A stretch of DNA of 64,000 nt, from assembly GCA_964016885.1 (NCBI GenBank), contig OZ024742.1, positions 156,116,001 to 156,180,000 on the forward strand. The letters are read 5' to 3'. This DNA is from Eledone cirrhosa. Lineage: Eukaryota. This document shows positions 7,159-57,809 of this stretch, one piece after another. The position numbers were made by a program, and so were the translations under genes. The notes below the pieces were generated by a model. It was not told the origin of the DNA. It was given only the letters and a program-made list of their open reading frames with translations, and did no database searches. Numbering within the stretch: the first letter of the stretch is position 1; every line of letters starts with the position of its first letter.

Positions 7159-7228
<70 letters not shown>

Positions 7229-7464
7229 TGCTACTGTACGTCTGTATACATATATGTATGTACGTATACATACATACTTACATTTAAGTAAGTGCCATAC
7301 TAAGAGTGAGAAATGAAATTTCGTTTTCATTTTTTTTTCAACTTGTCGTTTTCGGTATGCCTGACCGATTTAACTCACTCAATATGCAAATTAGGCTGCT
7401 CAGCCGTTAATTTTCATAAGGAAAGTATATACTTTCGAACGTTCAACTATCTGGCAGATGGGTA

Positions 7465-7508
7465 AACGGTGCTGATGATAGCTAACAAATTGAAACTAGT
7501 ACATCGTT
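7465..7508 (+). ncRNA. Hammerhead ribozyme family B copy 3 (stem II damaged)
   Basis: Core intact; stem II region reads TAGCTAACAAATT. Confidence 0.65.
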
Positions 7509-7666
7509 CCTGTGTCAGTGTTGAACAAAAAGATGACGTGGTTGCCTTAACACCGTATAGCATAAATTCAGGCTGTTCGATTTGTTGACAAACAAGCGAA
7601 CAAAGATGCGTTATAATAAACGTCGGCTAAACTGATGCGTGCATATATGTATGTGTACCTGTATGC

Positions 7667-7729
<63 letters not shown>

Positions 7730-7965
7730 TGCTACTGTACGTCTGTATACATATATGTATGTACGTATACATACATACTTACATTTAAGTAAGTGCCATA
7801 TTAAGAGTGAGAAATGAAATTTCGTTTTCATTTTTTTTTTAACTTGTCGTTTTCGGTATGCCTGACCGATTTAACTCACTCAATATGCAAATTAGGCTGC
7901 TCAGCCATTAATTTTCATAAGGAAAGTATATACTTTCGAACGTTCAACTATCTGGCAGATGGGTA

Positions 7966-8010
7966 AACGGTGCTGAAGATAGCTAACAAGCTTGAAACTA
8001 GTACATCGTT
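7966..8010 (+). ncRNA. Hammerhead ribozyme family B copy 4
   Basis: Core CTGAAGA (change at the tolerant N7 position); stems intact. Confidence 0.85.
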
Positions 8011-8179
8011 CCTGTGTCAGTGTTGAACAAAAAGGTGACGTGGTTGCCTTAACACAGTATGGCATAAATTCAGGCTGTTCGATTTGTTGACAAACAAGCG
8101 AACAAAGCTGCGTTATAATAAACGTCGGCTAAACTGATGCGTGCATATATGTATGTGTACCTGTATGCATATGTGTGTA

Positions 8180-8271
<92 letters not shown>

Positions 8272-8509
8272 TGCTACTGTACATCTGTATACATATATGT
8301 ATGTACGTATACATACATACTTACATTTAAGTAAGTGCCATACTAAGAGTGAGAAATGAAATTTCGTTTTCACATTTTTTTTTCAACTTGTCGTTTTCGG
8401 TATGCCTGACCGATTTAACTCACTCAATATGCAAATTAGGCTGCTCAGCCGTTAATTTTCATAAGGAAAGTATATACTTTCGAACGTTCAACTATCTGGC
8501 AGATGGGTA

Positions 8510-8554
8510 AACGGTGCTGATGATAGCTAACAAGCTTGAAACTAGTACATCGTT
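8510..8554 (+). ncRNA. Hammerhead ribozyme family B copy 5
   Basis: Identical to copy 1. Confidence 0.85.
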
Positions 8555-8728
8555 CCTGTGTCAGTGTTGAACAAAAAGGTGACGTGGTTGCCTTAACACC
8601 GTATGGCATACATTCAGGCTGTTCGATTTGTTGACAAACAAGCGAACAAAGCTGCGTTATAATAAACGTCGGCTAAACTGATGCGTGCATATATGTATGT
8701 GTACCTGTATGCATATGTGTGTATATAT

Positions 8729-9185
8729 AAAACATTTGAAGCAATTGCTAACAAAAGCAAAGTTTGACCTTAACAACAAAGACCAATCATTCACTGTATC
8801 TAAATGCAATGATAATCGATGCGGCACATGTCAATCCATACACGCCGGTCAATATATGAAAACAAAAACTGGAAAAATATTCACAAATGCAAATATGAAC
8901 TGCAAAAGCAGAAATCTAATTTACTGCATTAAATGCCCGAATTGTGAAGAACTATATGTCGGTCAAACTGGAAATGCACTATCGGAACGTGCACGGGTAC
9001 ACCGTCAACAAATCAGAGACCCAAATGTCCGTCAGATACCCCTAAGCGGCCACCTGGCAACATGTGGTCAGGGAATATTTATAATATTCCCATTCTACAA
9101 ATTACACAGCCCAAGTGAAATCAAGAGAAAAATCAAAGAAAAGAATTTTATTGATAAATTCAAACCCAAGCTAAATGAACAATAA
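8729..9185 (+). pseudogene. PLE GIY-YIG endonuclease C-terminal fragment (Nematis/Neptune-like)
   Basis: KC..RCGTC, NCKSRNLIYCIKCPNC..LYVGQTG..L.ER..VH, H, E..FI.KFKPKLN. Confidence 0.85.
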
Positions 9186-9560
9186 TAACGCCTAGGGGTA
9201 TTACTTCTACTACCACTATGACCACGACCACTAACAACAACAACAACAACAATAATAATAATAATAAAAGTGATGTTGATGGTGATGATTAATAGAAAAT
9301 GCTATTTTCATCATTTCAAAAAAGCAAAACAATTAATACGTTGGATATGACTATTGGTCGTTAGCATGCTCAACCAGCCGTGACGCTTAAACCAATCAGC
9401 TGTAGTAATTCAGTGAAACTACACACTGATTGGTCGAAATACAGTTTACAGTGCTTTGTATTCTGGAGCCACTTTTCTCTGTATAAAATGTATAAAAGGT
9501 AGGAAATTTACCCATCTCATTACAGTTGAAAATTGCAAACTCGACTGTCACCACATATCA

Positions 9561-9599
9561 TGAACCTGAAGATTGCGAAAGCATGAAAGTACTTGTTCA
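9561..9599 (+). ncRNA. Hammerhead ribozyme family A copy 2
   Basis: Identical to 157-195; lies in the pLTR downstream of the GIY-YIG ORF. Confidence 0.78.
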
Positions 9600-10040
9600 A
9601 TTAACACTTAGAATTTAATATTCTATAAATACTATTTCATTATAATACCATTATATATATTTTAAAGGATTGTAAATAAAACGAGTGAATCAGACAAAGT
9701 TGGAATTCCTCTTATTAATATAATCTTCTATACACAATCATACACACCCGTGTATATTTACCTATCTATATCTATCTATCTATATATATATATATATATA
9801 TGCATGCTACTGTACGTCTGTATACATATATGTATGTACGTATACATACATACTTACATTTAAGTAAGTGCCATACTAAGAGTGAGAAATGAAATTTCGT
9901 TTTCATTTTTTTTTCAACTTGTCGTTTTCGGTATGCCTGACCGATTTAGCTCACTCAATATGCAAATTAGGCTGCTCAGCCGTTAATTTTCATAAGGAAA
10001 GTATATACTTTCGAACGTTCAACTATCTGGCAGATGGGTA

Positions 10041-10085
10041 AACGGTGGTGATGATAGCTAACAAGCTTGAAACTAGTACATCGTT
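10041..10085 (+). ncRNA. Hammerhead family B copy 6 (core mutated, likely inactive)
   Basis: GTGATGA instead of CTGATGA. Confidence 0.6.
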
Positions 10086-10246
10086 CCTGTGTCAGTGTTG
10101 AACAAAAAGGTGACGTGTTTGCCTTAACACCGTATGGCATAAATTCAGGCTGTTCGATTTGTTGACAAACAAGCGAACAAAGCTGCGTTATAATAACCGT
10201 CGGCTAAACTGATGCGTGCATATATGTATGTGTACCTGTATGCATA

Positions 10247-10369
<123 letters not shown>

Positions 10370-10607
10370 TGCTACTGTACGTCTGTATACATATATGTAT
10401 GTACGTATACATACATACTTACATTTAAGTAAGTGCCATACTAAGAGTGAGAAATGAAATTTCGTTTTCATTTTTTTTTTTCAACTTGTCGTTTTCGGTA
10501 TGCCTGACCGATTTAACTCACTCAATATGCAAATTAGGCTGCTCAGCCGTTAATTTTCATAAGGAAAGTATATACTTTCGAACGTTCAACTATCTGGCAG
10601 ATTGGTA

Positions 10608-10652
10608 AACGGTGCTGATGATAGCTAACAAGCTTGAAACTAGTACATCGTT
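10608..10652 (+). ncRNA. Hammerhead ribozyme family B copy 7
   Basis: Identical to copy 1. Confidence 0.85.
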
Positions 10653-11046
10653 CCTGTGTCAGTGTTGAACAAAAAGTTGACGTGGTTGCCTTAACACCGT
10701 ATGGCATACATTCAGGCTGTTCGATTTGTTGACAAACAAGCGAACAGAGCTGCGTTATAATAAACGTCGGCTAAACTGATGCGTGCATATATGTATGTGT
10801 ACCTGTATGCATATGTGTGTGTATATATATATATATATATGCATGCTACTGTACGTCTGTATACATATATGTACGTATACATACATACTTACATATATAT
10901 ATATATATATATTAATAAGGAACGCTCGCCTTCACACATATATATATATATATACATTATAATACCATTATAATACCATTATATATTTTAAAGATTTGTA
11001 AATAAAACGAGTAAGTCAGACAAAATTGGAATTCCTCTTATTAATA

Positions 11047-11579: not shown

Positions 11580-11801
11580 ATTTCGTTTCTGAATTTGTTT
11601 AGCAAGATTCTTTATCTGAAATCGTGTGTTGAAACCGATATTGTTATACTTTGGGAGGGTCATGTTGCCAATAAGAAACACACGCACCAGTGCTTCACTT
11701 CAATTTATTATATATTTATAAATTTATAAATTTACAAATTTACAAACTTATAAATTTCTGGTTGGTTGGTTGGTTCCACAACCAGATAGTTGTTTATATA
11801 T

Positions 11802-11846
11802 AGTTATAGTCCTTTCGTTACACACTCTGTGACCTCTTCAGTGACT
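11802..11846 (-). ncRNA. Hammerhead family D
   Basis: Reverse complement of the motif at 12316-12360, with two stem substitutions. Confidence 0.65.
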
Positions 11847-12315
11847 GGTGATTCCTTTCTTCGTTTCTGTGCCTTTCCTTTCTTCTATCCTACGCCATTT
11901 TGTTTCTGTGTGTGTGTTGTGTGCTCAGTTTGCACATGCGCTACATCCGGGTGTCTGTGTGTGTTTGTGTTCATTTATCTATTTGTTTATTTATTTATTT
12001 ATTTATTGTTGGTTGGTTGTTTGTTCTATGTGTGTGTGTGTTTTCATTTTATTTTGTTATTAAGGACAAAATGAAAACAGACACAAAATGAAAACACACA
12101 CAGGACAAAATAAAATGAAAACACACACACACATAGAACAAACAACCAACCAACAATAAATAAATAAATAAATAAACAAATAGATAAATGTACACAAACA
12201 CACACAGACACCCGGATGTGGCGCATGCGCAAACTGAGCACACAACACACACACAGAAACAAAATGGCGTAGGATAGAAGAAAGGAAAGGCACAGAAACG
12301 AAGAAAGTAATCCCC

Positions 12316-12360
12316 AGTCACTGAAGAGGTCACAGAGTGTGTGACGAAAGGACTATGACT
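12316..12360 (+). ncRNA. Hammerhead family D
   Basis: AGTCA-CTGAAGA-gGTCACA gagtg TGTGAC-GAAA-GGAC-TA-TGACT. Confidence 0.8.
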
Positions 12361-13087
12361 ATATATAAACAACTATCTGGTTGTGGAACCAACCAACCAA
12401 CCAGAAATTTATAAGTTTGTAAATTTGTAAATTTATAAATTTATAAATATATAATAAATTGAAGTGAAAGCAACTGGTGCGTGTGTTTCTTATTGGCAAC
12501 ATGACCCTCCCAAAGTATAACAATATATATATATATATATTTTTTTTAATGTATAGAAGGTTGGCCGTATGTGTGTGTGCGCGCATAAGTATGTATATAT
12601 GTTTACGTTTGAATAAGACATGCTAACCCAACTGATATAAAACAGTCAGAAGGCACGTGGCGGCATGTATCAACAAGTGTGTGTGACTGGGTACATGGTA
12701 GTGAGGGAGAGAGGGTGGGTGAGTATATATACAGCGATGTATGTATGTGGCGGTGTGGGTGTCTGCGCTTGTAGACGTACGTGTGTGTATGCGTAGATAG
12801 GTATGTGTCTGAATATGTGTGTGTTATTATGTGTTTATTCTAGTATATGTGGGGGCTTACTCTGAAGTGTGAGTAGACGTGTGAAGTATTGAACCCAGCA
12901 TGACTCCATTGAAATGTGTCGGACGGAAAATGGTCGATGAACCGTGTGGCAGCAGATACTGACCAGAACATGTGATGACGTGGAGTAAAAACAGCCAATG
13001 GCATGAAAGGAGTGGAAAGAGGGTTTTTTGAGGGTGTTGTTTTGATGATAACACCCCAGTGATCAAATTTGCCTCGGACGTAACACC

Positions 13088-14906: not shown

Positions 14907-14942
14907 ATTAACAAATGGAAATTATATTTATAAAACCATATC

Positions 14943-15007
14943 TATTTTATTATACATATTTCAAGGTCACCATGTTAAATTATGGTATGCTTTCATCAGA
15001 CAAAATA
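14943..15007 (-). ncRNA. Hammerhead family J
   Basis: TATTTTGT-CTGATGA-AAG caTACCAT..ATGGTG acCTT-GAAA-TATGTA-TA-ATAAAATA. Confidence 0.75.
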
Positions 15008-15179
15008 CAAAACATACCAGTTTTATAAATAAATATTGACATACCCTTTCAAAATGCAACCGTTATTTTGGAAGACATCATTTATAACAGTTATAAAAAT
15101 ATTTGCTTGTTGTATCCCAACAATTTAAATGGAACTTTTGTATATATATATTCTTCTACCCGTCATATAACAATATTAT

Positions 15180-15249
<70 letters not shown>

Positions 15250-15469
15250 CGTTTCTGAATTTGTTTAGCAAGACTCTTTATCTGAAATCGTGTGTTGAAA
15301 CCGATATTGTTATACTTTGGGAGGGTCATGTTGCCAATAAGAAACAAACGCACCAGTTGCTTTCACTTCAATTTATTATATATTTATAAATTTATAAATT
15401 TACAAATCTACAAACTTATAAATTTCTGGTTAGTTGGTTTGTTCCACAACCAGATAGTTGTTTATATAT

Positions 15470-15514
15470 AGTCATAGTCCTTTCGTCACACACTATGTGA
15501 CCTCTTCAGTGACT
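15470..15514 (-). ncRNA. Hammerhead family D
   Basis: Intact AGTCA-CTGAAGA..GAAA-GGAC-TA-TGACT on the minus strand. Confidence 0.8.
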
Positions 15515-15728
15515 GGGGATTCCTTTCTTTGTTTCTGTGCCTTTCCTTTCTTCTATCCTACGCCATTTTGTTTATGTGTGTGTGTTGTGTGCTCAGTTTG
15601 CGCATGCGCCACATCCGGGTGTCTGTGTGTGTTTGTGTTCATTTATCTATTTGTTTATTTATTTATTTATTTATTTACATGTTGTTGGTTGGTTGTTTGT
15701 TCTATGTGTGTGTGTTTTCATTTTGTCC

Positions 15729-16183
15729 TTAATTGTAAGTTGTGATGTTGCTGTTCCACTCATATTTTCTATTTAATTTTGGTTGTAATTCTTTTATGCT
15801 TACTGCCTCTGTAATTTGCCTAAACATTGCATCTTTTCTGTGTGTGGATTCTATTTTTATTTCTATGTTCTCTAATTTACCCTTGTGTTCTATCTTAGCA
15901 TGTTGGTAGAGCACAGATGATTCTTTATTATCTTGAAGGTCTCGCCAGTGTTCATTTATTCGTTCCCCTATACTACGAGCTGTCTCACCTATGTACACTA
16001 TATTTTTGTTTCTACATTGTCCTTCAGTACATCTTATGCTATACACTACATTTCTAGTTTTACAGTTAATATGGGAGCTTATTTTACAGGTTATACATTT
16101 CTTATCTATACATGAGTGTCTTTGGAACGGATATGTCTTGCTAATAAGTGTAAGTGTAAGTGTTTTTACGGAGGTACCTGGTC
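15729..16183 (-). pseudogene. PLE GIY-YIG endonuclease C-terminal fragment (Hydra-clade-like)
   Basis: C..KKCITC, NCKTRNVVYSIRC..C..VYIGETARSIGERINEH, H..EH, RQITEAVSI, LNRKYEW. Confidence 0.85.
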
Positions 16184-16524
16184 TTAACTGTAAAACTAGA
16201 AATGTAGTGTATAGCATAAGATGTACTGAAGAAAAATGTAGAAACAAAAATATAGTGTACATAGGTGAGACAGCTCGTAGTATAGGGGAACGAATAAATG
16301 AACACTGGCGAGACCTTCAAGATAATAAAGAATCATCTGTGCTCTACCAACATGCTAAGATAGAACACAAGGGTAAATTAGAGAACATAGAAATAAAAAT
16401 AGAATCCACACACAGAAAAGATGCAATGTTTAGGCAAATTACAGAGGCAGTAAGCATAAAAGAATTACAACCAAAATTAAATAGAAAATATGAGTGGAAC
16501 AGCAACATCACAACTTACAATTAA
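16184..16524 (+). pseudogene. Inverted duplicate of the GIY-YIG fragment
   Basis: Near-identical peptide on the plus strand from NCKTRNVVY to the stop. Confidence 0.85.
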
Positions 16525-16735
16525 GGACAAAATGAAAACACACACACACATAGAACAAACAACCAACCAACAACATGTAAATAAATAAATAAATAAACAA
16601 ATAGATAAATGAACACAAACACACACATACACCCGGATGTGGCGCATGCGCAAACTGAGCACACAACATACACGCAGAAACAAAATGGCGTAGGACAGAA
16701 GAAAGGAAAGCACAGAAACAAAGAAAGGAATCCCC

Positions 16736-16780
16736 AGTCACTGAAGAGGTCACAGAGTGTGTGACGAAAGGACAATGACT
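16736..16780 (+). ncRNA. Hammerhead family D (cleavage-site U mutated)
   Basis: GAAA-GGAC-AA-TGACT. Confidence 0.6.
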
Positions 16781-16990
16781 ATATATAAACAACTATCTGG
16801 TTGTGGAACTAACCAACCAACCAGAAATTTATAAGTTTGTAGATTTGTAAATTTATAAATTTATAAATATATAATAAATTGAAGTGAAAGCAACTGGTGC
16901 GTGTGTTTCTTATTGGCAACATGACCCTCCAAAGTATAACAATATATATATATATTAATATATATATATATTAATATATATATATATATA

Positions 16991-26776: not shown

Positions 26777-26842
26777 ATTTTATTATACATATTTCAGAGT
26801 TACGTGAATCAGGTTCAACAATACGTCCTCATCAGATAAAAT
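26777..26842 (-). ncRNA. Hammerhead family J-related
   Basis: ATTTTAT-CTGATGA-ggACGT..TGAA cctga TTCACGT..ct-GAAA-TATGTA-TA-ATAAAAT. Confidence 0.72.
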
Positions 26843-30761: not shown

Positions 30762-30765
<4 letters not shown>

Positions 30766-31378
30766 AATTAGCGTATCTACCAACATATATATACAGATGA
30801 ATACCTATGCTAGCAAATATATAGGTTTTGTCTTAGTAACTGTGTGGTTCAATGCAAGGGGATGCAAGACAATTATATGAAAGACGTAAAATAGGAAAAT
30901 TATAAAAATGAACTTACTAAAATTTCACTCAAACTAATTAGTTTCTGGAAGGGAATAAACATGGTTTCCGAATGGACACATGGAGAATGCCTTTCTTCAT
31001 CAGGAAGTCAATTCTCAGCTAAGTTCCCAGGCGATGCGTGGACACAGGGAACTTATACAAAAATAATTCAGTGGATGGAAAAAAGCGTGCGTGGACTAAA
31101 TTCCAAGACATTGAAAAAATCACTGCCTACTTGGTCGGTGGCAAATTCAAAAGAATCAATCACGTGACATCGAGGGTAATCAGTGAGGAGTGGAGTGTTA
31201 AGGAGCCAGTAGCCGAACTATTCCTATGAACTATAGAAGCAGTTTTGGCAAATTTTTGCTCAACAAAATAATTTGATGATAATTATAAAGAATTAGTATA
31301 TCTACAAACATATATATACAGATGCATACCTATGCTAACAAATATATAGGTTTTGTCTTAGTAACTTTGAGGTTCAAG
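30762..31378 (-). repeat. Partial tandem (~526-bp period, ~1.2 units); diverged relative of family G
   Basis: 30762-30850 is repeated at 31288-31378; collinear with the unit at 37948-39729. Confidence 0.8.
30928..31007 (-). ncRNA. Hammerhead family G, diverged variant
   Basis: CTTC-CTGATGA-aGAAAGG..CCTTCCa-GAAA-CTAATTAG-TT-TGAG. Confidence 0.68.
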
Positions 31379-31779
31379 GTTTGGTGGAAAAATATGATAG
31401 GAATATCGACAACGACTTTAGCTTGTTTTTACATTCTTTATTAACCAAGGTTAAGAAGTGAATTAGGCTGGCATGCCAAGAGAAATGAAACAAATCAATT
31501 AAGATTACAAGAGAAAATACGGGCGACTGGCTGAAGGCGTTTGGCCAGGCTCGTAGGTAATGTTTTGTCGTTACATATTGTTTGTGCTTACGGAGAAAAA
31601 GAACAAGCGTGTTTTGCCTTAGCATGGTCCAGCTGCGAGTCATAGCGTCCTCAAATCTTTGCGGGCTATTTTTCCCTCAGAACGCGTCGGGATACATCCT
31701 CTTCTACTGGCGCTGATTGGCTGAGCTGAGCCAAATCACGCACAGAGAATGTATATGAGCCCGCGGAATGTAGGTCATT

Positions 31780-33368
<1,589 letters not shown>

Positions 33369-35827: not shown

Positions 35828-36779
35828 ATTAAAGTATATGATAAACACGAAATGTGTTTACATTGCAACAGACAAAGTTAGCCATTAATGAAATAAACTA
35901 ATAAAAGTGAATACAATTTGTCTGTCTCGATACAAGTCAATAAAGACAAGCTTATATTGGCAACTGCCATGAATCCTGGACATATTTAAATTTCAAAATT
36001 CAAACGTGTTCTGTAGACGAATTTGAACCTCGAAACCCAAATAAGTTTCGCAATGGTGGAATGTGAATTGAAAATTAAAGAGAATCGAAATGGAATAGAA
36101 ATAAAAGAGTGAATTATCCAAATCATCTGTGCATATCAACAGGAATCCAGTAAGATTAGACTATCTCACATCAAAAATTTTGCAGGACTGACTACACGTG
36201 CGTAGGTAGGCCAAAACTAGCTATCCCACGTTCACGGTGCTAGAAATAACAGCCGCTTATGCAGGATTAAGGATCAGTTCTTACAATAAAGGAGCTATAC
36301 ATTATATTATATTTTGAGAATAAACTCTCAGTCGTTTACAATAATTAAGCTCCAGGAAGGGGCTCTTCCGAGCAGTTAAATACATTTAAAGTATATGATA
36401 AACACGAAATGCGTTTTCATTGCAACAGACAAAGTTAGCCATTAATGAAATAAACTAATAAAAGTGAATACAATTTGTCTGTCTCGATACAAGTCAATAA
36501 AGACAAGCTTATATTGGCAACTGCCATGATTCGTGGACATATTTAAATTTCAAAATTCAAACGTGTTCTCTAGACGAATTTGAACCTCGAAACTCAAATA
36601 AGTTTCGCAATGGTGGAATGTGAATTGAAAAATAAAGAGAATCGAAATGGAATAGAAATAAAAGAGTGAAATATTCAAATCATCTGTGCATATCAACAGG
36701 AATCCAGTAAGATTAGTCTATCTCACATCAAAAATTTTGCAGGACTGACTACACGTGGGTAGGCAGGCCAAAACTAGAT
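35828..36779. repeat. Partial tandem non-coding repeat (~557-bp period, ~1.7 units) between TA tracts
   Basis: TTAAAGTATATGATAAACACGAAATG at ~35829 and ~36386; both copies run to GGCCAAAACTAG. Confidence 0.88.
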
Positions 36780-36953
36780 ATATATATATATATACATATA
36801 CATACACATATATATATAAATATATATATATACACATATATATATATACAGATACAAACACATATATATATACATATACATACACATATATATATACATA
36901 TACGTACACATATATATATACATATACATACAGATACATATATACATATACAT

Positions 36954-37002
<49 letters not shown>

Positions 37003-37263
37003 CATACACATACATATATACATACACATACATATATATATATATATAAATACACATACATATATATATATACATACACATACATATATATATAAATACA
37101 CATACATATATATATATATATACATACACATACATATATATACATATACATACACATATATATACATATACATACACATATATATACATACATATATATA
37201 TACATATATATATATACATACATATACATATATATATATACATATACATATATATATATATAC

Positions 37264-37296
<33 letters not shown>

Positions 37297-37421
37297 CATA
37301 TATATATATACATATATATACATACATATACATATATATATATACATATATATACATACATATACCTATATATATATACATATATATACATACATATACA
37401 TATACATATATATATATGTAC

Positions 37422-37453
<32 letters not shown>

Positions 37454-38009
37454 ATATACATATATATATACATATATAAAAATACATATACATATACATA
37501 TATATATACATATATATATATATATACATATACACATATATATATATATATACATATACATATACATATATATATATATACATATATATACATGCATATA
37601 CATATACATATATATACATGCATATACATATACATATACATATATATATATATATACATATACATATACATATATATATACATATACATACACATATATA
37701 TATACATATATATATATATACATATATATATACACATACATATATACATATATATATATATACATATACATATACATATATACATATATATATATATATA
37801 CATATATATATACATATACATATATATACATATATAGATATACATATATATACATACATATACATATACATATATATGTATATACATATACATATACATA
37901 TATATACATATATATATATACATATATATATATACATACATATATATAAAAGATGTAAAACAAGAAAATTAAAAAAAAATTTTTTAAAATTAACTTACTA
38001 AAATTTTCA

Positions 38010-38088
38010 CTCCAACTAATTAGTTTCTGCAATGGGATAAAGACAGTTACGTAATAAACTGTTGAGAACTCATTGCGTCATCAGGGAG
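38010..38088 (-). ncRNA. Hammerhead family G
   Basis: CTCC-CTGATGA-cGCAATG..ACAGTT..AACTGT..CATTGCa-GAAA-CTAATTAG-TT-GGAG. Confidence 0.82.
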
Positions 38089-38554
38089 GTCTATTCTCAG
38101 CTAAGTCTCCAGGCAATGCGCGGACACTGGGGACTCATATAAAAATAATAATAATTCGGTAAATGGAACAGCTAGCGGGGACTGGATTCCGTGTACTGAA
38201 AATCTCGCTGTCACTGGTCAAATGGCAGATTCTAAAGAATCAATCTCGTGACACTGAGGCTAGTCGGTAGGAGTGGGATGGTAAGATGACAGAAGCCTAC
38301 TAACACACCAAAAAATTAGTAGTGGTTTTGGCAGGTTTGCTCGACAAATAAGTGATTTGGAGATAAATATAGAGAATTTAGTATATCTACTAACATATGC
38401 GTACAGATGTACGCTAATGCCAGCAAATACACAGGTTATGTCATAGTACCTAGGTGGTTCAATGCAGGAGGATGCAGAACAATAATATAAAAGACGTAAA
38501 ATAAGAAAATTTAAAAAAAAATTTAAAAAATTAACTTACTTACTAAAATTTTCA

Positions 38555-38633
38555 CTCCAACTAATTAGTTTCTGCAATGGGATAAAGACAGTTACGTAAT
38601 AAACTGTTGATAACTCATTGCGTCATCAGGGAG
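38555..38633 (-). ncRNA. Hammerhead family G
   Basis: As 38010-38088. Confidence 0.82.
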
Positions 38634-38921
38634 GTCTATTCTCAGCTAAGTCTCCAGGCAATGCGCGGACTCGGGACTCATATAAACATAATAATAATTC
38701 GGTAAATGGAACAGCTAGCGGGGGACTGGATTCCATGTACTGAAAAGCTCGCTGTCACTGGTCAAATGGCAGATTCTAAAGAATCAATCTCGTGACACTG
38801 ATGCTAGTCGATAGGAGTGGTATGGTAAGATGACAGAAGGTTTCCATTTACCGAATTATTATTATTTTTATATGAGTCCCCAGTGTCCGCGCATTGCCTG
38901 GAGACTTAGCTGAGAATAGAC

Positions 38922-39000
38922 CTCCCTGATGACGCAATGAATTCTCAACAGTTTATTACGTAACTGTCTTTATCCCATTGCAGAAACTAATTAGTTTGAG
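38922..39000 (+). ncRNA. Hammerhead family G (one stem I mismatch)
   Basis: Ends TT-TGAG. Confidence 0.72.
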
Positions 39001-39464
39001 TGAACATTTTAGTAAGTAAGTTAATTTTTTTAAATTTTTTAAAAATTTTCTTATTTTACGTCTTTTATATTATTGTTCTGCATCCTCCTGCATTGAACCA
39101 CCTAGGTAGTATGACATAACCTGTGTATTTGCTGGCATTAGCGTACATCTGTACGCATATGTTAGTAGATATACTAAATTCTCTATATTTATCTCCAAAT
39201 CACTTATTTGTCGAGCAAACCTGCCAAAACCACTACTAATTTGTTGGTGTGTTAGTAGGCTTCAGTCATCTTACCATCCCACTCCTACCGACTAGCCTCA
39301 GTGTCACGTCATTGATTCTTCAGAATCTGCCATTTGACCAGTGACAGCGAGATTTTCAGTACATGGAATCCAGTCCCCGCTAGCTGTTCCATTTACCGAA
39401 TTATTATTATTTTTATATGAGTCCCGTGTCCGCGCATTGCCTGGAGACTTAGCTGAGAATAGAC

Positions 39465-39543
39465 CTCCCTGATGACGCAATGAGTTATCAACAGTTTATT
39501 ACGTAACTGTCTTTATCCCATTGCAGAAACTAATTAGTTGGAG
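39465..39543 (+). ncRNA. Hammerhead family G
   Basis: Intact motif on the plus strand. Confidence 0.82.
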
Positions 39544-39728
39544 TGAAAATTTTAGTAAGTAAGTTAATTTTTTAAAATATTTTTTAAAATGTTCTTATTT
39601 TACGTCTTTTATATTATTGTTCTGCATCCTCCTGCATTGAACCACCTAGGTACTATGACATAACCTGTGTATTTGCTGGCATTAGCGTACATCTGTACGC
39701 ATATGTTAGTAGATATACTAAATTCTCT

Positions 39729-39785
<57 letters not shown>

Positions 39786-40004
39786 CATATATATATATAC
39801 ATACATATATATATATACATATATATACATATATACATATATATATATACATATATACATATATACATATATACATATATACATATACATATACATATAT
39901 ACATATACATATATATATATATACATATACATATATATACGTATACTTATATATACATTTATATATATATATATATACATATACATATACATATATATAT
40001 ATAC

Positions 40005-40035
<31 letters not shown>

Positions 40036-40244
40036 CATATACATATACATATATACATATACATATATATATATACATATACATATATATATATACATAT
40101 ACATATATATATATACATATATATATACATATACATATATATATATGTACATATATATATACATACATATATATATATACATATACATATATATATATAT
40201 ACATATACATATATATATATATACATATACATATATATATATAC

Positions 40245-40276
<32 letters not shown>

Positions 40277-40304
40277 ATACACATATATATATATATACAT
40301 ATAC

Positions 40305-40368
<64 letters not shown>

Positions 40369-40466
40369 GCATATACATATATATATATATATATACATAT
40401 ATACATATATACATATATATATACATATATACATATATACATATATATATACATATATATATATAC

Positions 40467-40497
<31 letters not shown>

Positions 40498-40673
40498 CAT
40501 ATATGCATACATACATATATACATACATATATATATATACATATATACATACATATATATATATATACATATACACATATATATATACATATACATGTAT
40601 ATATATACATATACACATATATATATACATATATATATATATACATATACACATATATATATACATATACACA

Positions 40674-40705
<32 letters not shown>

Positions 40706-41256
40706 GATATATCTACCAACAATTTATGGTAGTGTCCAATCCGTATGAAGAAGTCAATGTAATCCGGATATCACGAAAAGAGAAGATGCATTCAAAATCT
40801 ATTTTCGGTGAAAATTAACGGAAAACAGAGTCAATATAAATTAATAAAGTAATCAATAAACGAAGAAACAGTTCCTTATATTAAAAAAAATTCATCATTC
40901 TACGATCGTTTCTAGGACAAATATGTGTTAGTGTTGGTATGCATATTCTATAGATCTATGTAAAAAATGTATACAAACTATAAGAGGGAATATACATACC
41001 TACACATATATATGCTGTCTTCAGAAATAATGATATTTGTTTATTGAAAAAAACAAAGATTTAATACAATAGGTCTGTTTGGGAACAGGTTTTGAATTGA
41101 CCAATAGGAAGATAGTGAAGGACAAGATAGTAATATATTAGTAAAATAACCTTACTTTATGGGTAGAGGAAGGTAGATTTCAGTTTTGTATGGAAAAGAA
41201 TATTATGAATGAAAGATTATTTTAGGGATGGAAATAGGTCGTATGCTGACCTACAG

Positions 41257-42457: not shown

Positions 42458-42754
42458 ACATACATATATATATACATACATATATATATATACATACATA
42501 CATATATATACATATATATATATATACATACATACATATATATATATATTTCGTTTCTGAATTTGTTTAGCAAGATTCTTTATCTGAAATCGTGTGTTGA
42601 AACCGATATTGTTATACTTTGGGAGGGTCATGTTGCTAATAAGAAACACACGCACCAGCTGCACTCACTTCAATTTATTATATATTATAAATTTACAAAT
42701 TTATAAATTTCTGGTTGGTTGGTTGGTTCCACAACCAGATAGTTGTTTATATAT

Positions 42755-42799
42755 AGTCGTAGTTCTTTCGTTACACACTATGTGACCTCTTCAGTGACT
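42755..42799 (-). ncRNA. Hammerhead family D (stem mismatches)
   Basis: Core CTGAAGA..GAAA-GAAC-TA intact. Confidence 0.6.
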
Positions 42800-42937
42800 G
42801 GGGATTCCTTTCTTTGTTTCTGTGCCACTCCTTTGTTCTGTCCTAGGGCCATTTTGTTTCTGTGTGTGTGTTCAACAGAAACAAAATGGCGTAGGACAGA
42901 ACAAAGGAGAGGCACAGAAACAAAGAAAGGTATCCTC

Positions 42938-42982
42938 AGTCACTGAAGAGGTCACAGAGTGTGTGACGAAAGAACTATGACT
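42938..42982 (+). ncRNA. Hammerhead family D
   Basis: AGTCA-CTGAAGA-gGTCAC..GTGAC-GAAA-GAAC-TA-TGACT. Confidence 0.78.
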
Positions 42983-43169
42983 ATATATAAACCACTATCT
43001 GGTTGTGGAACCAACCAACCAGAAATTTATAAATTTGTAAATTTATAATATATAATAAATTGAAGTGAGAGCAACTGGTGCGTGTGTTTCTTATTAGCAA
43101 CATGACCCTCCCAAAGTATAACAATATATATATATACATATATATATATACATACATATGTACATACAT

Positions 43170-43379: not shown

Positions 43380-46300
43380 CATACATATATACATACACAC
43401 ACACATACATACACATACAAACACACATACACACACACAAACGTTAATAACAATAATAATAATAATAATAGCAATAATAATAATAACGACAACAACAATA
43501 ATAATATACATGTTCATATATATATACACACACACACGCACGCACATAAGCATATCTACACACACACACACACACACACGATAGCAACTAACAGTGCTGC
43601 GATCGAATGTGGCTTTTTAGCCCAGCCAATGATCTAAAGTGTCTTGCACAGAATCGGCAACCAAAACATTCACTGGGAATAGTCGGCTGTGGTGGGGGTT
43701 CGTGTTCTTTTGCATGTCGCTTGAGCCCTCCTGCTGATTTACATTCTCTACCACATGTTTGGCAAGCATGATGAGTAGCATCTCCAACAGCAGCCTGGTA
43801 GTCAACCACTGGTCTTACTTTATGACTGCGAAGATGACTTTCGTGTCCAGCTTTGCTTAGGCAGAGTCTCGCACAGACACTGCATGTCAGCACCATAGGA
43901 GGACCTTCGCCGTCTGGAAGTGCAACAGCAATGCCCTTCCTCACATCCCGCTTTACTTTCTCGTGTGCGATTCGAGATGCCTCAAAGGCAAGTTTTCCCT
44001 CATATACAGTCTTTCTCCATTTATTACGATCAGCAGCAACATTTTCCCATGTATCAGCAGAGATGTTAGCGTCTTTCAGAGAGGCTTTCAAGGAATCCTT
44101 ATACCTCCTTTTTGGTTTATGTGGCGGTCGTTTTCCTTTAACCAACTCTCCATAGAAGAGTTGTTTTGGTATTCTAGAATCCTTCATCCTGGCAAGGTGA
44201 CCACTCCAACGGAGTCGTTGCTTAAACACAAGAGCTTCTATACTGTCACACATAGATCTTTCCAAAATTTCGACATCACTGATGTGGTCCCTCCAGTGAA
44301 CGCCATGGATCCGTCTGAGACAAATCTGATGGAAACGCTCCAATTGCTTAAGGTGGTGTCGATATGTGACCCAGGTCTCGCAGGCATAAAGAAGACAAGA
44401 GAGTACACATGCCCTGTACACCTTTACCTTTGTCCTCCTGCATATGTCTCACCGACCCCAGAGTCGCCTTTCTAGCTTTCCGAAAGCATCACTTGCTTTC
44501 CTAATCCTAAATGATATTTCACTGTCAAGGTTGCCGTATCGATTGACAGTGCTTCCCAGGTAGACAAACTGATCAACCACTCCAAGTCGTTTGCTATACA
44601 CATAGATGTTTGGTTCAGTGTAGTGCTTACTAGGGGCAGGTTGGTACATGACGACGGTTTTCTTGACACTGACAGTCAAACCCAGGGCAGTGCAAGCGTC
44701 AGAAAATGCATTCAAAATGTGCTGCATATCACTCTCTGTGTGCGCTACAAGATCGCAATCATCTGCATACAAGAGGTCTCTTATGATTGATGTAAATACT
44801 TTTGTCTTCGCAGCAAAGCGCCTGATGTTAAATATGCTGCCTGAGGTTCGATATCGGATGTAAACACCATGCTCGCAATTCCTGAATGCAATACAGAAAA
44901 CCATTTGCAAAGTATATGGCAAACAGGGTCGGTGCTGGAATATCCCCCTGTTTCACTCCATTTTTTACTTAGATAGGCTCCGACATGTTACCACCGACAT
45001 TAACACAAGCCTTCACGTCGTCATGGAAAGACCTAACTAAAGCAAGGAACTTATCAGGGCAACCAAGTTTCTGGAGAACCTTCCATAATGCATCTCTGTT
45101 GACAGTATCGAAAGCCTTTGTCAGATCGACAAAAACCTGATACAGATCCAAGCCTTGTTCAATACACTTCTCCTGGAGCTTTCTAGCTGAGAAGATCATA
45201 TCAGTAGTGCCGCGTCCAGCACGAAAACCAGATTGACTTTCAGGAAGAACACAATCTGCAATGTGTGTTAGCAGACGGTCCAGAAGCACCCTACATAAAA
45301 CTTTCCCTACGACAGAAAGCAATGATGTACCTCTGTAGTTCCCACAATCATTCATGTTACCCTTTCCCTTGTACAAGACCACCATTACTGCATCTCTCCA
45401 GTCCTCAGGCACGGATTCATTAGCCCATATCCTTCCAAACAAAGAGTGCAGATGTTGCAGGAGTCTCTCACCACCATATTGTAGGAGCTCAGCATGTATG
45501 CCATCCATACCTGGATATCTTCCACTGTTCAGCTTTGAAATAGCCACTGCAACCTCCACAAGCGTCGGAGGTTCTGCGAGAGCTACTTTCACAGGACTTT
45601 CTGGAATGAGATTGAGGAAATCTTCACTGACGACAGACGGCTGATTCAAAAGATCATCAAAGTGCTCTCGCCACCTTCGTAGAATTCCCTGTGAGTCACG
45701 AAGAAGTGCTTTGCCATCCCTGCTGCGAAGCGGTGTCACCAGAGAAGAAGACGGTCCATAAACCTCACGCAAGAGACTGTACAACAGCTTTGTGTTATTG
45801 GAATCAGACGCAGTTTGTATCTCACCAGCCTTCTCACTCCACCACTGATCCTTCATCTGAGAAAGACTCCGCCTAACACGTGATTTTACATCCCTGAGCT
45901 CCTCATGCAACGTATTACTCTCCTGTGGTTTTGCCGTCAAGTAGCGTGACAGAGCACGCCTCTTATCAGCCAACAAGTCTTCTATATGTACATCATTCTC
46001 ATTAAACCAGTCCTGATGTTTTCTCTGCACCAATCCCAGAACACGCCTGCCCACATCATAAACCGACTTTTTAAGGGTCGGCCAATCCTCACCAAGATCT
46101 GCAGCCTGCATCTCTTCTTCCAATGTCCTCTTCACATTTTTATCCTTAAGACGAGCAGCATTCAATCTTTTGAGCAGGGTAACACCAGGAGCCCGGATTT
46201 TAAGTTTGGTGATTAGTTTCACTTTTGCGCGTACCAGGCGGTGGTCCGTCCAGCACTCAGCTCCACGAAGAACACGAACACACTGCACATCCTGTCTGTC

Positions 46301-47435
46301 ACCTGACTAGGACGTAGTCCAAAAGATGCCATTACTTAGATGCAGGATGCATCCATGTGGTCTTGAATTTGTTCTTTTGTTGGAACATGGTGTTGGTAAC
46401 ACACAGATCCAGCTCCTCACACATCTGCAGCAGGAGCATACCATTGCTGTTACACTTTCCCACCCCATGCCTTCCGATTACATTCCATGTGTTAAAATCC
46501 CTACCCACTCTAGCATTAAAGTCACCAAGCACGATGACTTTGTCTGCCTGAGGGATATTTCTTAGAACACCTTTCAAGGCATGGTAAAAGGACAGTTTTT
46601 CTTCATCGACAGAATTCATAGTTGGAGCATACACACTCACCAGGGTAGCATATCTTCCTTTGTCCAGCAGAACTCTCATGGACATAAGACGCTCACTAAT
46701 CCCTACTGGGAATTCTTCTATTTTATTCACAAGTACAGTCTTAACAGCAAATCCTACCCCAGCCTCTCTTCTGGTTCCTTCATCTCTTCCTTTGCAGAAG
46801 AATGTATATTCTCCACAAAATTCCGTAAGATGACCATCTCCAGCTAACCTCGTCTCAGATAAAGCCACGATATCAAGATCGTAACGTCGAAGCTCTTTGC
46901 AAGAAGAGCGGTCCTTCGTTCAGGACGCTCCACGGAATCCCTGTCAAGCAGCGTCCGTACGTTCCAGCAGCCAAGACTAAATGCCTTGTTTGGCTCTATT
47001 ACAATGGCACGATGACGAGCGGGCCCAGGCTGTGATAACTTGGGGCCCCTGCCCTTATTGCCATTGATCTTTTTTGTTCGAGAACCTAAATTGCCAATTA
47101 TCTCTTTTACATTGTTCTGGAACATCATTGAATAATAATTAATAATTATTAATGCACTCGTGCAATGCCTGTGCGTGACGAATATTTTTAAAGTGAGGAA
47201 AGACTGTGCACTGAGCCAATCCCACTCTCTGAGCGACAGTAGCTATAACCCGAAAAGAAGAAAAGATCAACATCATCGGTAACTACTGAGCCGCAGGTTT
47301 TATATCGGAGTTAACCCAGTTTCCTGAGATGCCTTCTCCTAGAAGAATACCCTGACAAGGGCTAGTGGTCCTTCACTCCCAGTGGTTTAACTGCGCGATC
47401 GGGCATCCAGCCCGATTATTTCTATGTCCCCGCGC
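43170..47435 (-). mobile_element. Full-length but frameshifted RTE-clade LINE
   Basis: Collinear with 51021-55203; 3' stem-loop at ~43170-43210. Confidence 0.9.
43588..47128 (-). pseudogene. Frameshifted RTE APE-RT-C2H2 ORF
   Basis: Track ORFs 46844-47128, 46332-46868, 44969-46288 and 44449-44922/43588-44421 tile the intact 1181-aa protein, with frameshifts near 46880, 46310 and 44900-44970. Confidence 0.92.
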
Positions 47436-51246: not shown

Positions 51247-54200
51247 GATAGCAACTAACAGTGCTGCGATCGAATGTGGCTTTTTAGCCCAGCCAATGAT
51301 CCAAAATGTCTTGCACAGAGTCGGCAACCAAAACATTTACTGGGAATAGTCGGCTGTGGTTGGAGTTCGTGTACTTTTGCATGTCGCTTGAGTCCTCCTG
51401 CTGATTTACATTCTCTACCACATGTTTGGCAAGCATGATGAGTAGCATCTCCAACAGCAGCCTGGTAGTCAACCACTGGTCTTACTTTATGACTGCGAAG
51501 ATGACTTTCGAGTCCAGCTTTGCTTAGGCAGAGTCTCGCACAGACGCTGCATGTCAGAAACATAGGAGGACCCTCGCCGTCTGGAAGTGCAACAGCAATA
51601 CCCTTCCTCACGTCCCGCTTTACTTTCTCGTGTGCGATTCGAGATGCCTCAAAGGCAACTTTTCCCTCATATACAGTCTTTCTCCATTTATTACGATCAG
51701 CAGCAATATTTTCCCATGTATCAGCAGAGATGTTAGCGTCTTTCAGAGAGGCCTTCAAGGAATCCTTATACCTCTTTTTTGGTTTATGTGGCGGTCGTTT
51801 TCCTTTAACCAACTCTCCATAGAAGAGTTGTTTTGGTATTCTAGAATCCTTCATCCTGGCAAGGTGACCACTCCAACGGAGTCGCTGCTTAAGCACAAGA
51901 GCTTCTATACTGTCACACATAGAGCTTTCCAAAATCTCGACATCACTGATGTGGTCCCTCCAGCGAACGCCATGTATCCGTCTGAGACACATCTGATGGA
52001 AACGCTCCAATTGCTTAAGGTGGCGTCGATATGTGACCCAGGTCTCGCAGGCATAAAGAAGACAAGAGAGTACACATGCCCTGTACACCTTTACCTTTGT
52101 CCTCCTGCATATGTCTCGCCGACCCCAGAGTCGCCTTTCTAGCTTTCCGAAAGCATCACTTGCTTTCCTAATCCTAAGTGAGATTTCACTGTCAAGGTTG
52201 CCGTATCGATTGACAGTGCTTCCCAGGTAGACAAACTGATCAACCACTCCAAGTCGTTTGCCATACACATAGATGTTTGGTTCAGTGTACTGCCTACCAG
52301 GTGCAGGTTGGTACATGACGACGGTTTTCTTGAGACTGACAGTCAAACCCAGGGCAGTGCAAGCGTCAGAAAATACATTCAAAATGTGCTGCATATCACT
52401 CTCTGTGTGCGCTACAAGATCGCAATCATCTGCATACAAGAGGTCTCTTATGACTGATGTAAATACTTTTGTCTTCGCAGCAAAGCGCCTGATGTTAAAT
52501 ATGCTGCCTGAGGTTCGATATCGGATGTAAACACCATGCTCGCAATTCCTGAATGCAACACAGAAAACCATTGCAAAGTATATGGCAAACAGGGTCGGTG
52601 CTGGAATATCCCCCTGTTTCACTCCATTTTTTACTGAGATAGGCTCCGACATGTTACCTCCGACATTAACCCAAGCCTTCATGTCGTCATGGAAAGACCT
52701 AACTAAAGCAAGGAACTTATCAGGGCAACCAAGTTTCTGGAGAACCTTCCATAATGCATCTCTGTTGACAGTATCGAAAGCCTTTGTCAGATCGACAAAA
52801 ACCTGATACAGATCCAAGCCCTGTTCAATGCACTTCTCCTGGAGCTGTCTAGCTGAGAAGATCATATCAGTAGTGCCGCGTCCAACACGAAAACCAGATT
52901 GACTTTCAGGAAGGACACAATCTGCAATGTGTGTCAGCAGACGGTCCAGAAGCACCCTACATAAAACTTTCCCCACGACAGAAAGCAATGATATACCTCT
53001 GTAGTTCCCACAATCATTCCTGTTACCCTTTCCCTTGTACAAGACCACCATTACTGCATCTCTCCAGTCCTCAGGCACGGATTCATTAGCCCATATCCTT
53101 CCAAACAGAGAGTGAAGATGTTGCAGGAGTCTCTCACCACCATATTGTAGGAGCTCAGCATGTATGCCATCCATACCTGGAGATCTTCCACTGTTCAGCT
53201 TCGAAATAGCCACTGCAACCTCCACAAGTGTCGGAGGCTCTGCGAGAGCTACTTTCACAGGACTTTCCGGAATGAGATTGAGGAAATCTTCACTGACGAC
53301 AGACGGCTGATTCAAAAGATCATCAAAGTGCTCCCGCCACCTTCGTAGAATTCCCTGTGAGTCACGAAGAAGTTCTTTGCCATCCTTGCTGCGAATCGGT
53401 GTCACCAGAGAAGAAGACGGTCCATAAACCTCACGCAAGAGACTGTACAACAGCTTTGTGTTATTGCAATCAGACGCAGTTTGTATCTCACCAGCCTTCT
53501 CACTCCACCACTGATCCTTCATCTGAGAAAGACTCCGCCTAACACGTGATTTTACATCCCTGAGCTCCTCATGCAACGTATTCCTCTCCTGTGGTCTTGC
53601 CGTCAAGTAGCGTGACAGAGCGCGCCTCTTATCAGCCAACAAGTCATCTATATGCACATCTTTCTCATTAAACCAGTCCTGATGTTTTCTCTGCACCAAT
53701 CCCAGAACACGTCTGCCTACATCATAAACCGACTTTTTAAGGGTCGGCCAATCCTCACCAAGATCTGCAGCCTGCATCTCTTCTTCCAATGTCCTCTTCA
53801 CATTTTTATCCTTAAGACGAGCAGCATTCAATCTTTTGGGCAGGGTAACACCAGGAGCCCGGATTTTACGTTTGGTGATTAGATTCACTTTTGCGCGTAC
53901 CAGGCGGTGGTCCGTCCAGCACTCAGCTCCACGAAGAACACGAACACACCGCACATCCTGTCTGTCACGCATCCTGACTAGGACGTAGTCCAAAAGATGC
54001 CATTCCTTAGATGCAGGATGCATCCATGTGGTCTTGAATTTGTTCTTTTGTTGGAACATGGTGTTGGTAACACACAGATCCAGCTCCTCACACATCTGCA
54101 GCAAGAGCATACCATTGCTGTTACACTTTCCCACCCCATGCCTTCCGATTACATTCCATGTGTTAAAATCCCTACCCACTCTAGCATTAAAGTCACCAAG

Positions 54201-54808
54201 CACGATGACTTTGTCTGCCTGAGGGATATTTCTTAAAACACCTTTCAAGGCATGGTAAAAGGACAGTTTTTCTTCATCGACAGAATTCATAGTTGGAGCA
54301 TACACACTCACCAGGGTAGCATATCTTCCCTTGTCCAGCGGAACTCTCATGGACATAAGACGCTCACTAATCCCCACTGGGAATTCTTCCAATTTATTCA
54401 CCAGTACAGTCTTAACAGCAAATCCTACCCCAGCCTCTCTTCTGGTTCCTTCATCTCTTCCTTTCCAGAAGAATGTATATTCTCCACAAAATTCCGTAAG
54501 ATGACCATCTCCAGCTAACCTCGTCTCAGACAAAGCCACGATGTCAAGATCGTAACGTCGAAGCTCCTTCGCAACAAGAGCGGTCCTTCGTTCAGGACGC
54601 TCCAAAGAATCCCTGTCAAGCAGCGTCCGTACGTTCCAGCAGCCAAGACTAAATGCCCTGTTTGGCTCTATTACAATGGCACGATGACGGGCGGGCCCAG
54701 GTTGTGATAACTTGGGGCCCCTGCCCTTATTGCCAATGATCTTTTTTGTTCCAGAACCCAAATTGGCAATTATCTCGTTTACATTGTTCTGGAACATCAT
54801 TGAATTGG

Positions 54809-54842
<34 letters not shown>

Positions 54843-55203
54843 AGAAAAAAAAAAAAAAAAAAGTAATAATAATAGTAATAATAATAATAATAATAATACT
54901 ACACTATTAATAATTATTAATGCACTCGTGCAATGCCTGTGCGTGACGAATATTTTTAAAGTGAGGAAAGACTGTGCACTGAACCAATCCCACTCTCTGA
55001 GCGACAGTAGCTATAACCCGAAAAGAAGAAAAGATCAACATCATCGGTAACTACTGAGCCGCAGGTTTTATATCGGAGTTAACCCAGTTTCCTGAGATGC
55101 CTTCTCCTAGAAGAATACCCTGACATGGGCTAGGGGTTCTTCACTCCCAGTGGTTTAACTGCGCGATCGGGCATCCAGCCCGATTATTTCTATGTCCCCG
55201 CGC
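51021..55203 (-). mobile_element. Full-length RTE-clade LINE with intact ORF
   Basis: 5' UTR, single ORF, microsatellite-containing 3' UTR, terminal stem-loop. Confidence 0.93.
51255..54800 (-). CDS. RTE ORF: apurinic-like endonuclease, reverse transcriptase and three C2H2 zinc fingers (1181 aa)
   Basis: WNVRTL, ALSETR, SVYAPT, GDFNAR, LDYV, TDHRLV; [32 protein letters not shown]; three CxxC-x12-H motifs. Confidence 0.95.
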
Positions 55204-57296: not shown

Positions 57297-57528
57297 CTAA
57301 AGGAATAAGGGTGGGGAGTTCAGGCTGGGGGGAGTGTGGGTCTGTAAGATGAAGATAGTTCGTTGTTCGACCGTAAAGCGATGGGCGGGTGTTCCGTGGC
57401 ACTGGAGTAGGCCACAGACTGTGAGATGGCGTGGGGAGTGTCCAGGGCCACCAAAGTGGCGGGCGATGGGGAAACTGCCCCCGAGACGAATATCCCGGAG
57501 GTGTTCCGTGACTCGGTCCGCCAGAGTT
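57297..57528 (-). pseudogene. Neptune-type GIY-YIG C-terminus (not in the ORF track)
   Basis: TLADRVTEHLRDIR..PIARHF..GHS..LTVCGLLQC..RFTVEQRTIFILQTHTPPSLN. Confidence 0.8.
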
Positions 57529-57533
57529 CCATG

Positions 57534-57604
57534 TATTTTATTATGCGCATTTCAAAAACAAATATCATCATGTAATAACATTTGTGTTTTCATCAGATAA
57601 AATA
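57534..57604 (-). ncRNA. Hammerhead family I
   Basis: Reverse complement of 57739-57809. Confidence 0.85.
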
Positions 57605-57738
57605 GGAAGATATGATATGAAGTTTAAAAAACACTTGTGGATAGTGCAGTTTTAAATAAACAGAGAGTGCAGTTTTAAATCAAGATATTAAAAATGCAGT
57701 ATCCACAAGTGTTTTTTAGCCTTCATATCATATCTTCC

Positions 57739-57809
57739 TATTTTATCTGATGAAAACACAAATGTTATTACATGATTATATTTGTTTTTGAAATGCGCAT
57801 AATAAAATA
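57739..57809 (+). ncRNA. Hammerhead family I
   Basis: TATTTTAT-CTGATGA-AAAcACAAAT..ATTTGTTTTt-GAAA-TGCGCA-TA-ATAAAATA; 8-bp stem I, palindromic stem III. Confidence 0.87.

Follow-up and report, generated by a model that had tools for sequence, protein, structure and literature searches.

Hammerhead-bearing retroelements related to the studied locus

The closest described relatives of the locus studied here are Penelope-like elements (PLEs) and animal non-LTR retrozymes. Hammerhead ribozymes of PLEs are characterized, in the available part of PMC4209133, by a base between positions 9 and 10.1, a G10.1-C11.1 pair, a large helix II and a palindromic helix III. They are expected to work as dimers and show poor cleavage in vitro; pairs of them stand on opposite strands at a distance of 100–700 bp. 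5' truncation is common to most PLE copies, which are arranged in partial tandems next to an inverted partner, itself 5'-truncated; a 30–40-bp tail at one end, a bias towards (TA)n and the existence of non-autonomous forms have also been reported (10.1101/2021.04.23.441226, as far as available). According to the accessible part of PMC3846280, the commonest arrangement among PLE insertions is head-to-head, duplications are 8–10 bp long, pLTRs are sufficient in trans, and rotifer PLEs showed no cross-mobilisation between families. According to PMC11167929, as far as available, both strands are cut and extended by a PLE protein, whose synthesis begins internally on the RNA, at two stem-loop sites that delimit the tail and lack homology to the target. 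Animal non-LTR retrozymes are 150–450 bp long and expressed as circles (PMC7229834, available part). They have been proposed as non-autonomous PLE derivatives with units of 51–972 bp in bioRxiv 10.64898/2026.07.22.740005, where one of nine predicted Xenopus retrozyme dimers was cleaved; tails and inverted insertions are absent from the available text of this source. The movement of animal retrozymes has so far been deduced from co-occurrence and sequence trees.

We analyzed a window of 64 kb (the whole stretch of DNA under study, to which all positions refer), in which a hammerhead-bearing sequence family, here family G, occupies positions 37949–39727. It is probably a non-coding, non-autonomous PLE-type retroelement, that is, an animal non-LTR retrozyme, with a unit of ~545 nt. 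Like the retrozymes in the available parts of PMC7229834 and bioRxiv 10.64898/2026.07.22.740005, it is a non-coding tandem with a type I hammerhead in each unit and a GC content under 50%; it is likewise devoid of LTR, PBS and PPT, has a (candidate) long target duplication and co-occurs with PLEs. Its unit lies within the 51–972 bp range of the latter source and above the 150–450 bp of the former. In contrast to the canonical hammerhead of retrozymes, that of family G is of the atypical PLE type (50-nt helix II domain, extra base, U17), and its insertion is head-to-head and double-armed, for which no counterpart was found in the descriptions of retrozymes available in the literature searched. 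With endonuclease-bearing PLEs, as described in the parts of the literature available, it shares partial tandems, an inverted 5'-truncated head-to-head partner, an extension at one end only and a (TA)n target, and with the hammerheads of PLE pLTRs the extra base, the palindromic helix III and a G-C pair as the basal pair of helix II. Unlike these PLEs, it contains neither an RT nor a GIY-YIG ORF. Its tail is ~118 nt long, compared with 30–40 nt in the PLE descriptions available and 58 nt in a coding PLE of the window, and its candidate duplication is ~18 bp rather than 8–10 bp; TATA-type microhomology at both 3' ends also separates it from PLEs as described in these sources. Non-autonomous Chlamys elements such as MRC1 (10.1101/2021.04.23.441226, available part) differ from family G in being green algal and mostly without hammerheads, and they resemble their own autonomous partner at the 3' end, whereas family G has no known partner.

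The initial annotation described the locus as a second independent retrozyme-like lineage. The term retrozyme-like fits tandem non-coding units with a type I hammerhead in each; independence holds in the sense of a separate sequence family only, one that matches none of the other families of the window, since motif type and layout are those of PLEs. Most likely, family G is a new family of a known kind. The motif or family may already be contained in Repbase or among the shrimp, rotifer and mosquito motifs drawn in the supplementary figures of PMC4209133; no description of it was found in the titles or abstracts searched. In itself it is one further family among the thousands of such motifs in animal genomes. 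However, a retrozyme with the full Penelope insertion signature, beside coding PLEs of like layout, would provide direct anatomical support for a movement that has been deduced indirectly. Besides, family G supplies two candidate start sites and a hairpin as targets for the existing in vitro PLE system. Pattern matches in metagenome (27 loci) and viral (1 locus) contigs were rejected as chance occurrences: 0 of 28 had hammerhead helices, and none matched the family G unit beyond the motif or AT-rich stretches.

Position and fold of the hammerheads

The pattern of core plus palindrome occurred five times in the window and not once in any of 100 shuffled sequences. Four of these cores belong to family G, at 38084->38015 and 38629->38560 on the minus strand and 38926->38995 and 39469->39538 on the plus strand; the fifth (31003->30933, minus strand) lies in a diverged relative, here D. 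Cleavage-to-cleavage lengths in family G were 545 and 543 nt, and thus four hammerheads, two per strand, at a spacing of ~545 bp, as first noted, were recovered. With the outer helix I included, the type I hammerheads extend over 37993..38106 (outer left copy, minus strand; predicted cut 3' of U17 at 38014), 38538..38651 (inner left, minus strand; U17 at 38559), 38904..39017 (inner right, plus strand; U17 at 38996) and 39447..39560 (outer right, plus strand; U17 at 39539). The outer right copy folded with a z of -2.57 relative to shuffled sequences.

In all these motifs the core CUGANGA...GAAA...UH is present with helices I, II and III around it and helix I open, which places them in type I. 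Helix I consists of 4 inner bp, an internal loop and 11 outer bp. After A9 there is one extra base and before G12 an unpaired A, and helix III terminates in GUU. The long stem II of the initial annotation was found as a 50-nt helix II domain containing two 6-bp helices. Together, the extra base between 9 and 10.1, G10.1-C11.1, the large helix II, the short inner helix I and the palindromic helix III correspond to the atypical PLE hammerhead. The inner helix I is complete in 3 of the 4 family G copies; in the inner right copy and in relative D (2 of 5 motifs), a C.U mismatch occupies the base of this helix. GUU is among the active NUH sites (PMC3138052, available part), U at position 17 also occurs in another PLE-linked family of the window (motifs at 162 and 9566), and no quantitative cleavage rates for U17 were found in the literature searched.

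CTAATTAG and the core A-U pair form a 10-nt palindrome. An 8-nt palindromic stem III had been proposed, but a single motif can form only 3 bp with a 4-nt loop (+1.5 kcal/mol); between two motifs, the palindrome gives a 10-bp duplex (-9.0 kcal/mol). In single-strand folding, the core mispairs. A search of the block alone against Rfam gave no hammerhead, its two matches up to E 10 being both to one microRNA model (E 3.3). With the whole window and E up to 1, the best 150 of 472 matches were dominated by microRNA models on TA repeats. Because no Rfam hammerhead match was obtained, the hammerhead call relies on descriptor and fold; probably, the 50-nt helix II domain defeats the Rfam hammerhead models. 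Absence of cleavage, which the initial annotation named as a refutation, would be a weak argument against a ribozyme, because PLE hammerheads cleave poorly in vitro and few of the Xenopus dimers were cleaved. At window position 38921, hundreds of reads and several contigs of public runs X1 and X14 represent a subfamily in which the 5' arm of helix II differs and a 1-nt deletion would lengthen the inner helix I.

Anatomy of the insertion

The block is one insertion, in which two 5'-truncated partial tandems are joined head-to-head. The left arm (37949..38839, minus strand, 891 nt, ~1.6 units) reads leftwards and ends, at what we call the short point, 65 nt past the cleavage site (69 nt in the register of the inner copy). 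The right arm (38842..39727, plus strand, 886 nt) reads rightwards to the long point, 187–188 nt past the cleavage site. These two 3' end points are ~118 nt apart, each within (TA)n. At the 5' ends, the arms are truncated differently, 210 nt (left) and 84 nt (right) upstream of the core, and at the junction (38840..38841) 1–2 bases match neither arm. The arms, 95–97% identical to each other, begin and end at different points of the unit and do not mirror each other. Among the records listed from 4 of 16 public runs, none was seen to span the junction. In both arms, two type I hammerheads stand in consecutive tandem units, in line with the minimum of two such units expected of retrozymes. The longest stop-free stretch of the right arm is 63 aa, there is no ORF in family G, and the absence of RT and GIY-YIG ORFs sets it apart from autonomous PLEs. 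Also, 0 of 9 gaps relative to D are multiples of three.

At each 3' end point, the unit continues with TATA or TATAT, which gives a microhomology of 4–5 nt with the target; such 4-mers begin at 10 of 544 unit positions. The same points are used by other copies. Among the contigs listed for public run X4, one crosses from unit to (TA)n at the long point; at the short point, two others exit through a short TA run. Between the two points, the ~118-nt tail of the right arm contains a 22-bp hairpin (39667..39718, plus strand), which ends ~10 nt before the long end and was highly stable (z -5.92; none of 200 shuffles was equally stable). Further copies of this hairpin are located at 38381..38432 in the left arm (minus strand) and at 39123..39174, the first copy of the right arm (plus strand).

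The insertion is flanked by (TA)n-type microsatellites, and an 18-bp sequence at the end of the left one (36778–37948) recurs at the start of the right one (39728–40712). These 18-mers (37931..37948 and 39728..39745, both plus strand) are identical, including two C's. The probability of such a match by chance is ~0.02–0.05 in these microsatellites and 0.07 for any 18-bp match, and the first 4 nt of the right copy also fit the continuation of the unit itself. An 18-bp target-site duplication is likely, although the evidence for it is suggestive only.

The dispersal of family G is evident from the relative in the window and from many contigs of public runs: it is a multi-copy family. On the stretch, 2253 contigs of run X1 and 69 of run X4, with many variants, were obtained, numbers which do not represent a copy number. 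The nearly equal lengths of the arms (891 and 886 nt) reflect 5' ends that are offset about as far as the 3' ends. Equal arm length was considered as a rule of the mechanism and rejected, as 2 of 3 control pairs were clearly unequal by eye. Two characters noted for 38538–39560, a 2-nt indel and a substitution, place the inner-left copy with the outer-right one and the outer-left copy with the inner-right one, as though two types of unit had been read out of phase with each other. An alternating two-unit template was considered for this pattern and found weak, with two informative characters only and upstream distances that disagree. The 11-bp outer helix I, the 22-bp 3' hairpin and the insertion anatomy had escaped the initial annotation.

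Diverged relative and selection on the ribozyme

Relative D (30762..31377, minus strand) is a partial tandem of 1.15 units with a unit of ~525 nt; its 3' end lies in (TA)n at the long end point, and its single hammerhead covers 30912–31024 (minus strand, U17 at 30932). The family G arms are 72–76% identical to it, and 144 of 520 aligned sites (27.7%) differ between G and D. Both have the same head-to-tail joint; on this basis, the unit itself would be the replicating entity across 28% divergence. A 400-bp piece unrelated to G (31378–31780) is fused to the 5' end of D and ends in (TA)n; it has no Pfam match in three frames, no hammerhead and no second copy in the window.

Selection on RNA structure had been suggested for the locus, and this is supported for the hammerhead, more by the invariance of core and outer helix I than by the stem II swap, and not for the whole unit. 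Between G and D, all 21 sites of core plus helix III are identical, as are all 22 of outer helix I (P ~0.001 for each at a uniform unit-wide rate, with the caveat that the real rate is not uniform and that outer helix I was picked after folding). Purifying selection on the ribozyme is thus well supported by this comparison.

Evidence from compensatory changes was less firm. The exchange at the base of stem II is as described in the initial annotation, which regarded pairing as largely retained: of the six pairs of the swapped helix, four are unchanged, one is compensatory (U-A to G-C) and one, altered on both sides, has become an A.C mismatch. One compensatory pair in six has a probability of ~0.18 by chance. 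The outer helix of domain II contributes two more, so that 3 of 12 helix II pairs are compensatory (P 0.007–0.03), a level reached by 5 of 500 shuffles; however, two of these three depend on the placement of a 1-nt gap, being kept in one alignment and broken in a global one. We regard covariation in helix II, observed between two independent sequences (G and D), as suggestive. Over the whole unit, these two sequences revealed no excess, with 6 compensatory pairs vs. 5.0 expected among 148 (P=0.39). A retrozyme monomer would be highly self-paired; G folds better than shuffled sequences and D barely so, with a z of -5.96 for the G unit, -4.62 for its reverse strand and -1.9 for the circular fold of D; the D hammerhead region had a z of -0.50 relative to shuffles. 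As for the 22-bp hairpin, D retains 19–20 of 22 pairs (P 0.005–0.016 at 50% transitions and 0.07–0.14 at 80%). Its two compensatory pairs (2 of 22) are both at CpG positions and were rejected as covariation, as CpG methylation decay explains them equally well.

Proposed mechanism and alternative explanations

The reading of family G as a non-autonomous PLE-type retroelement was preferred because its layout and end points match both the published PLE marks and the GIY-YIG-linked PLE family of the window, in all three copies. In such a mechanism, the tandem locus would be transcribed as a multimer, in which neighbouring hammerheads may pair their 10-nt palindromes to form an active double hammerhead that cuts after GUU. 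Cleavage would free monomers or oligomers, which may circularise. A PLE RT/GIY-YIG endonuclease supplied from elsewhere would then cut both strands of (TA)n with a stagger of ~18 nt, and from each free 3' end reverse transcription would start at an internal TATA-type microhomology of the RNA, the two sites flanking the 22-bp hairpin. The two cDNAs would each pass more than once through the unit, on a multimer or a circle, and stop short. Joining of the two cDNA 5' ends would give one insertion with four hammerheads, two per strand. Several observations speak against this reading. The search for a partner proposed earlier yielded no match of G to any coding PLE in the 64-kb window, the tail exceeds the length in print, and the 4–5-nt TATA-type homology at the G ends contrasts with published in vitro start sites that have no target homology. 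The lack of covariation over the whole unit, the weak fold of D, the helix I mismatch in 2 of 5 motifs, the mispairing of the core in single-strand folds and the gap-dependence of two compensatory pairs count against it as well.

An explanation that stays within PLEs is that an autonomous PLE, whose ORF lies elsewhere, contributed the unit as its pseudo-LTR (3' end), the block being a pile of 5'-truncated copies. Truncated partial tandems with an inverted partner are what most PLE copies look like (10.1101/2021.04.23.441226, available part), and the coding PLEs of the window form an equal layout. Nevertheless, both arms and the 28%-diverged D share one joint at which the unit is closed head-to-tail, and no ORF remnant precedes the hammerhead at the place of the GIY-YIG end of the control family, so that we consider this explanation improbable.

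Movement by an enzyme of another kind, such as a LINE reverse transcriptase, or RNA-to-RNA amplification would make family G an independent retrozyme lineage. The lack of a sequence match between G and any PLE of the window agrees with this, as do the RT ORFs of the window, which we take to be of LINE type and some of which are located in TA tracts. On the other hand, G lacks its own poly(A) or simple-repeat tail, and the inverted partner, the one-sided tail and the position of the 3' end points inside the unit fit PLE rules and the local control; such a helper is thus very unlikely. Also very unlikely are a decayed satellite that underwent both duplication and inversion as DNA, and a long-read assembly artefact of the fold-back type. 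The region is rich in microsatellites and no public record was seen across the junction, but an origin of this kind is difficult to reconcile with arms that differ by 3–5%, have unlike start and end points and are not mirror images, with block ends that coincide with the end points of other copies, with the candidate target duplication, and with a ribozyme conserved far above the rate of the unit.

A possible insertion from two templates

One contig from public run X4 (record 13; 144 nt, depth 133.9) contains a 5'-truncated G joined to the opposite strand of another hammerhead family. Its first 32 letters are not G, and 27 of 28 compared by eye match window positions 15109–15136, which belong to the hammerhead family at 14907–15180; the orientation gives a head-to-head join. 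The cross-family join is known from this one contig, of a run whose library type is not on record. A possible parallel in the window is D, whose 5' end is fused to the unrelated piece described above. It is conceivable, though rather doubtful, that at one (TA)n cut each end primes on its own RNA, such that a PLE-type enzyme, probably as a dimer, co-inserts two different hammerhead parasites head-to-head. The pairing of inner-left with outer-right copies by two characters also touches on a reading with two templates, while the lack of cross-mobilisation in a rotifer (PMC3846280, available part) runs counter to co-insertion across families. If true, family G would be a genomic footprint of retrozymes moved by PLE machinery across families, and the conserved 22-bp hairpin between two TATA-primed start sites would be a recognition signal. 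If the join is real and common, one cut could take two different templates.

Other mobile elements in the window

The window has the character of eukaryotic, almost surely animal DNA: GC content is ~20–35% across most of it, and long (TA)n-type microsatellites alternate with mobile-element islands. A descriptor scan of the whole window detected 17 hammerhead-like motifs of several families, and among seven proteins from window ORFs scanned against Pfam, two had GIY-YIG (PF01541) above the cut-off. The GIY-YIG-linked PLE family that served as control combines an ORF end, a CxxC-type linker and a hammerhead, and is present at 11582–12526, 15248–16944 and 42551–43124. In all three copies the arms are head-to-head, the hammerheads face outwards, both ends lie in (TA)n and one end is 58 nt longer; the short end is at an ATAT microhomology. 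A tandem array at 5879–10802 consists of ~430-bp hammerhead-bearing units with (TA)n in each repeat and a 62-bp inverted head; it is interrupted by a GIY-YIG fragment (8682–9185) with its own hammerhead (9566). At 1016–4623, a frameshifted ORF shows RT-like and GIY-YIG-like motifs by eye and inverted repeats on either side; a Pfam search with this ORF gave no match, and it may represent a PLE of nearly full length from a divergent clade. Additional hammerheads, in which helix II is long and helix III has 6 nt, were observed at 57523–57803, 26784–26835 and 14951–14999, and the pair at 57.5–57.8 kb is likewise head-to-head. The long RT ORFs of the window are presumably of LINE type. Two copies of one such element, 97% identical, occupy 43582–47133 and 51249–55010; the element is presumably RTE-like, and in its second copy an open frame of 1251 aa contains endonuclease and RT motifs as well as zinc fingers at the C-terminus.
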